IMG/VR virus record: IMGVR_UViG_2681813205_000016
Location: 1 to 4,395 of that record
DNA: 4,395 nt
Direction: 5' to 3' (one strand)
Source: a virus
Lineage: Duplodnaviria > Heunggongvirae > Uroviricota > Caudoviricetes
Shown: piece by piece, positions 1-98 of the stretch
How the letters are laid out: the number at the start of each line of letters is the position of its first letter
How positions within the stretch are numbered: the stretch's first letter is position 1
Notes under the pieces: model-generated
What the model saw: only the letters and a program-made list of their open reading frames with translations
The model's database searches: none
Told to the model about the DNA's origin: nothing
Position numbers and translations under genes: made by a program

Positions 1-98
1 GCTGTGTCTATAGTATTTTTTTTTTTTAAATGCACCGGCCCCCCCAAAATTCCAACCAAGGTGTCCCGTCGGCAGCGTCAGATTTGTATAAGAGACAC
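1..98. other. Non-biological sequence: Illumina Nextera Read-1 transposase adapter remnant plus homopolymer junk at window/contig edge
   Basis: Positions 67-97 (CGTCGGCAGCGTCAGATTTGTATAAGAGACA) match the Nextera Read-1 adapter TCGTCGGCAGCGTCAGATGTGTATAAGAGACAG at 30/31 bases (33-mer alignment 66-98 has 3 mismatches). Upstream are a T12 run (16-27) and C7 run (39-45), and 2-13 is a degenerate CTGTCTCTTATA-like mosaic-end motif. The TCGTCGGCAGCGTC part is synthetic and not part of natural Tn5/IS50. Confidence 0.85.

Follow-up and report, generated by a model that had tools for sequence, protein, structure and literature searches.

The left edge of a lambdoid E. coli prophage contig raises the question of whether its first 98 bases belong to a phage genome at all, and of how far inward from that edge the sequence of the adjoining HNH endonuclease gene can be trusted. 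The stretch of DNA analysed, referred to here as the window, comprises 4,395 nucleotides and corresponds, in reverse orientation, to the entire 4,395-bp contig JXWM01000365.1 (draft assembly GCA_000932215.1, NCBI). Because the window is the whole contig, bases 1–98 constitute a true contig end. A sequence-only reading had declared this edge to be synthetic and to consist of a Nextera adapter and homopolymer read-through fused to phage DNA. Its synthetic nature is upheld by the present analysis, while the supposed homopolymer read-through is sharpened into a structured succession of linker, P5 flow-cell sequence and sample index. The segments into which the window can be divided, and the open reading frame (ORF) that crosses their borders, are the following.

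1–18, no strand: unassignable noise past the end of the flow-cell molecule, with no match in natural genomes
19–28, plus strand: slot of the 10-T surface linker of the P5 oligo, observed as TTTTTTTTTA, 9/10 matches in exact register
29–57, plus strand: P5 flow-cell sequence (AATGATACGGCGACCACCGAGATCTACAC), heavily degraded, 16/29 matches without gaps in the predicted register
58–65, plus strand: i5 sample-index slot, observed as AAGGTGTC, 6/8 matches to AAGGAGTA (N/S507)
66–79, plus strand: Nextera Tn5 'A' adapter 14-mer TCGTCGGCAGCGTC, fully synthetic, 13/14 matches
80–98, plus strand: 19-bp Tn5 mosaic end AGATGTGTATAAGAGACAG, 17/19 matches to the synthetic mosaic end
99–131, minus strand: genuine prophage DNA, 3' part of the HNH gene, with six probable base-call errors relative to NZ_CP045827.1
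132–4395, no strand: genuine lambdoid prophage DNA, judged by gene calls and Pfam families
26–427, minus strand: chimeric HNH ORF of 133 residues, of which 1–99 are real, 100–109 altered by the probable errors and 110–133, with the stop, false

Genomic setting of the window

The gene set between bases 132 and 4395 is that of the lysis and late region of a lambdoid prophage and includes a DUF3950/YlcI gene, an Rz-type lysis gene, an antirepressor, a lysozyme and a holin truncated by the right edge. Alignments to E. coli prophages extend through base 4395, and an adapter screen of the whole window on both strands found the right end free of adapter. The best complete E. coli genome covers 83% of the window at about 98% identity, and a prophage segment identical over the whole window was found in none of 5,426 complete E. 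coli genomes; the prophage segment is therefore a mosaic.

Two details of this region are added for completeness. The antirepressor gene (2153–2722, minus strand), which carries P22_AR_N / ORF11CD3 domains, is located between the lysozyme and Rz genes, and the segment that holds it (2127–2898) is absent from the prophage copy best matching the left part of the window. The Rz-type lysis gene (1529–1996, minus strand; 155 residues; Pfam Phage_lysis) encloses in another frame a 68-residue ORF (1570–1776, minus strand), which combines a lipoprotein-like signal (…LPLVVSAC…) with a proline-rich body and, by these sequence characters, looks like an embedded Rz1-type gene.

Junction between synthetic and natural sequence

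The position of the junction was obtained from comparison with reference prophages. When bases 1–1200 were compared by megablast with the 5,426 complete E. coli genomes, the query was covered to 80% or more in 465 of them, and among the matches listed every alignment starts at base 99. The result is the same for the whole window as query, where 464 genomes reach a coverage of at least 80% and the alignments among the matches listed again start at base 99, and for phage records, in most of those listed. The artefact edge that had been placed at base 98 is thus correct as far as the junction is concerned, while the unreliable zone has to be extended to base 131, as set out below.

The natural sequence on the minus strand continues past base 99 as ...GGAGGTAGTGGCAGAGCGGACGACATCATCGGACTGTAA. 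Bases 1–98, compared in register with the continuation in NZ_CP045827.1, agree with it at 25 of 98 positions, as expected of random sequence. The HNH gene is annotated in NZ_CP045827.1 with 121 residues; it proceeds for 12 codons and a stop beyond the junction, ends 37 nt past it and is followed by a 288-nt intergenic gap and then by the small and large terminase subunits. The earlier warning that inferences on terminase or cos from this edge are unsafe is consequently well founded: genuine DNA ends at base 99, its real neighbours are the last 37 nt of the HNH gene, the gap and the terminase genes, and neither terminase nor cos nor a terminator can be read from the contig edge.

Searched alone against the same 5,426 genomes (E up to 10), bases 1–98 produced three matches. 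The two with E < 0.05 were both inspected and represent the adapter artefact at unrelated loci. The third (NZ_AP024130.1, 83754–83800; 81% over query positions 49–96, E = 0.3) sits in a glycosyltransferase family 25 gene, which is another unrelated locus. Within this set of genomes, no sign was found that segment 1–98 is contiguous with the HNH gene in a related natural genome.

Anatomy of bases 1–98

An anchored Nextera molecule consists, in this order, of a 10-T surface linker, the P5 sequence, an 8-nt i5 index and the adapter. This expected flow-cell construct was aligned without gaps to the window, the position of the adapter serving as the sole anchor. The P5, adapter and index sequences used as references are those which we take to be in general use, and they were checked empirically against contaminated public contigs.

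The match to the adapter is real. The Nextera Read-1 adapter (TCGTCGGCAGCGTCAGATGTGTATAAGAGACAG) agrees with bases 66–98 at 30 of 33 positions (three mismatches) and with bases 67–97 at 30 of 31, precisely as had been counted before. The positive adapter screen, run on both strands, yielded this single Read-1 match in the window, facing inward from the contig end, and none of 200 dinucleotide-preserving shuffles gave one. The last base of its mosaic end, base 98, forms the junction with the insert. Other adapters screened over the whole window on both strands (Nextera Read-2, TruSeq and P7) gave background scores only.

In the index slot the runner-up among the known indexes reaches only 4/8 matches, and the i5 index is probably AAGGAGTA read with two mismatches. 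The adjoining P5 segment is only 55% identical to its reference, so that its assignment rests on register and context and not on sequence alone; 16 or more matches are found in only 2 of 8,734 registers of the window, and the shuffle P is 0.0018. The run of seven C at 39–45, reported before and present, is the miscalled GACCACC of P5. Likewise present is the run of twelve T at 16–27, which compares with ten T in the linker and is accompanied by an extra A. A 10-T spacer on the surface primers of P5 sequence has been described (PMC11123353).

The outermost segment, 1–18, takes in the first three T of this run as well as a motif at 2–13 that had been regarded as resembling the mosaic end. In other contaminated contigs the equivalent slot is occupied by unrelated noise or poly-C. 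The motif was considered as a further part of the construct and discarded; its 10 matches over 11 aligned bases with one gap are at chance level (shuffle P = 0.053), and 135 of 4,246 genuine 18-mers of the window match the mosaic end equally well.

Probably damaged insert bases next to the junction

Natural DNA beyond the junction is not immediately reliable. Over 1,253 bases, from 132 to 1384, the window is 100% identical to NZ_CP045827.1, and between 99 and 131 it deviates from this sequence at six positions (103, 105, 116, 117, 129 and 131), all of them transversions and all within 33 nt. Among 1,256 E. coli records matching bases 99–180, none does so at 99% identity or more, and the best full-length match amounts to 92.7%, equivalent to exactly six differences; the six variants are absent from all 1,256 records. 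Along the presumed read, mismatches affect 6/33 bases at the end of the insert, 3/33 of the adapter, 2/8 of the index and 13/29 of P5. The error rate is accordingly not monotonic, a point that counts against the read-through: it is 18% at the end of the insert and 9% over the adapter. On the read strand, miscalls are most often to G (10/19). As judged from the sequence pattern, the six variants at 103–131 are probably base-call errors belonging to this one failing read; in the HNH protein they alter residues 100, 104, 108 and 109.

The HNH reading frame and its false tail

The HNH ORF had been described as running in frame through the synthetic stretch with about 25 false codons. It does run through in frame, and the count is 23 to 24: codon 110 straddles bases 98/99, and codons 111–133 together with the TAA stop (97 to 26) are wholly synthetic. 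The poly-A following the stop was correctly recognized as artificial, being the complement of the T run. The Pfam HNH domain (PF01844) is found at residues 49–94 with 26.7 bits (cut-off 21.4), outside the corrupted region, and the natural 121-residue protein, which has the identical domain, scores 27.0. Aligned to the latter, the 133-residue protein diverges from residue 100 onward. The last 34 residues are wrong, 100–109 presumably through the base-call errors and 110–133 by their synthetic origin, and the trustworthy part of the ORF is residues 1–99 only.

In the sequence collections the chimeric 133-residue protein occurs on exactly one contig, JXWM01000365.1, and has neither accession nor name. 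Natural 121-residue forms are present on 75, 110 and 977 contigs. Forms of 153–154 residues exist on 11 and 86 contigs, and numerous partial HNH proteins of 50–118 residues, cut by contig ends, occur on dozens of contigs each; the HNH gene is a recurrent break point of contigs in draft E. coli assemblies. Copies of the HNH region are found at a median of two places per genome and at up to 11.

Origin of the artefact

In Illumina paired-end chemistry, Read 2 is copied from the strand that the P5 surface oligo anchors. The minus strand of bases 1–131 reads like the 3' tail of such a Read 2 past a short insert. Its order of insert, adapter, index, P5 and poly-A therefore points to Read 2 and to an insert shorter than the read. 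The poly-T linker exists only on surface oligos, and for this reason we attribute the sequence to read-through on the instrument and not to a chimeric library molecule. The Read 2 origin, a low read support for the contig tip and the quality of the read are inferred.

On this basis we propose the following scenario. A Nextera fragment produced by Tn5 tagmentation would have carried a short insert whose end lies at window base 99. Read 2, corresponding to the minus strand of the window, would have run off this insert on the flow cell into the mosaic end and Read-1 adapter, both read as reverse complement, and from there into the i5 index, P5 and the poly-T linker. The surface linker would thereby appear as poly-A on the minus strand, before a few base calls without template conclude the read. 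Having escaped adapter and quality trimming, the read may then have been retained by the assembler, untrimmed, as the tip of a contig that stops inside the multi-copy prophage HNH gene. We are almost certain that bases 1–98 are a technical artefact and that bases 99–131 are genuine but were corrupted in that same bad read. In kind, the artefact is a commonplace untrimmed Nextera read-through and not a biological feature.

An artefact of another kind, either a chimeric library molecule or a mis-join by the assembler via low-complexity sequence, could draw on several irregularities of the outermost bases, namely bases 1–18, which match no part of the construct, the T run of 12 instead of 10 bases with its additional A, and the weak mosaic-end-like string at 2–13. 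The last of these resemblances does not exceed chance, and the poly-T linker, a sequence restricted to surface oligos, is located in register directly before P5, neither of which suits a chimera or mis-join; we regard such an event as very improbable. A true insertion derived from Tn5, be it the natural Tn5/IS50 element or a laboratory EZ-Tn5 transposon, would explain why a 19-bp Tn5-type end at 80–98 directly abuts phage DNA. Yet this segment is closer to the synthetic mosaic end (17/19) than to the natural outside and inside ends of Tn5 (14/19 each), it is preceded by the synthetic 14-mer, an index, P5 and the linker, and the sequence terminates at the contig end after 98 nt without a transposase or marker. 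To our knowledge, no transposon carries TCGTCGGCAGCGTC, the index, P5 or the linker. The probability of a transposon insertion is consequently rated as practically negligible.

That bases 1–98, or at least the variants at 99–131, might represent a naturally diverged C-terminus of the HNH protein is suggested by the reading frame, which stays open throughout the region. An open frame over 24 random codons is, however, unremarkable. Moreover, a counterpart was not found in the 5,426 complete E. coli genomes (two of the three matches were inspected and are artefacts), the 133-residue protein is unique to one contig, and the six variants are exclusively transversions clustered beside the adapter. 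We give a natural C-terminus virtually no credence and retain the read-through of a failing Read 2 as explanation.

A separate matter is why the contig stops where it does. Since the HNH region is multi-copy and many drafts break there, the break was probably caused by this repeat structure. The break leaves the last 37 nt of the HNH gene off the contig and is situated just upstream of the expected cos/terminase region; it might instead reflect a physical feature of the sample near the packaging site, for example DNA ends of an induced prophage or heterogeneity arising from it. The sequence offers no support for such a physical cause, and breaks in many drafts fit a repeat boundary; a physical cause appears highly unlikely to us.

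The same artefact in other public sequences

The exact Nextera adapter was searched for in species-representative genomes and metagenome-assembled genomes (MAGs), one genome per species (loci L003–L122); at least 120 contigs contain it, and they come from unrelated bacteria and archaea. Among the matches listed, 119 of 128 adapter copies are situated at most 70 nt from a contig end and face inward. In those of the listed contaminated contigs that have kept enough sequence, an index and an intact P5 precede the adapter. L046 and L118, two cleaner contigs from other organisms, contain exactly TTTTTTTTTT in the linker slot before P5, and AAGGAGTA occupies the index slot six times among the contaminated contigs listed. 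Several of the listed contigs have, outside P5, a long run of C that is poly-G in the read, and some have 10-nt indexes.

The two inspected E. coli matches mentioned above are of the same type. In NZ_CP067994.1 (L123, 474668–474748) twelve T, a degraded P5, GTAAGGAG and a degraded adapter are fused to acrS, and in NZ_CP071328.1 (L124, about 3147800–3147866) P5, CGTCTAAT and the adapter are found near yibL. In both cases the artefact is embedded in the chromosome of a genome labelled 'complete' in RefSeq. The annotated acrS coding sequence of strain CV601 has its start at locus position 372, within adapter-derived sequence, and the N-terminus of the CV601 acrS protein is, from its sequence, probably artefactual.

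A degraded adapter can thus persist in public records. For the present contig, trimming should be performed at base 132, from which the sequence is trustworthy, or as a minimum at base 99. The significance of the finding is one of data hygiene only.

Relation to known systems

Kala and colleagues are said to have described, in 2014, an HNH endonuclease encoded beside the terminase genes in the HK97 gp74-type arrangement. The genuine gene of the window conforms to it, being an HNH-domain gene (PF01844) that lies directly upstream of the terminase subunits in intact prophages. In contrast to this arrangement, the gene in the window has lost its last 12 codons and gained 24 false ones, and the window holds no terminase or cos DNA. 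The 19-bp Tn5-type end, with 17/19 matches to the mosaic end, is common to the window and to Tn5 and EZ-Tn5, but the window possesses no transposon body, and the flanks of this end are sequencing-specific synthetic sequence.

Among Nextera read-through contigs the window differs from several in having no poly-G tail (poly-C on the plus strand), and its copy is unusually error-ridden, with P5 identity at the low value given above; these heavy errors may be a cause of the adapter having escaped an adapter screen. In common with these contigs, the same adapter faces inward at a contig end, and linker, P5, i5 index slot, TCGTCGGCAGCGTC, mosaic end and insert follow one another in the same order.
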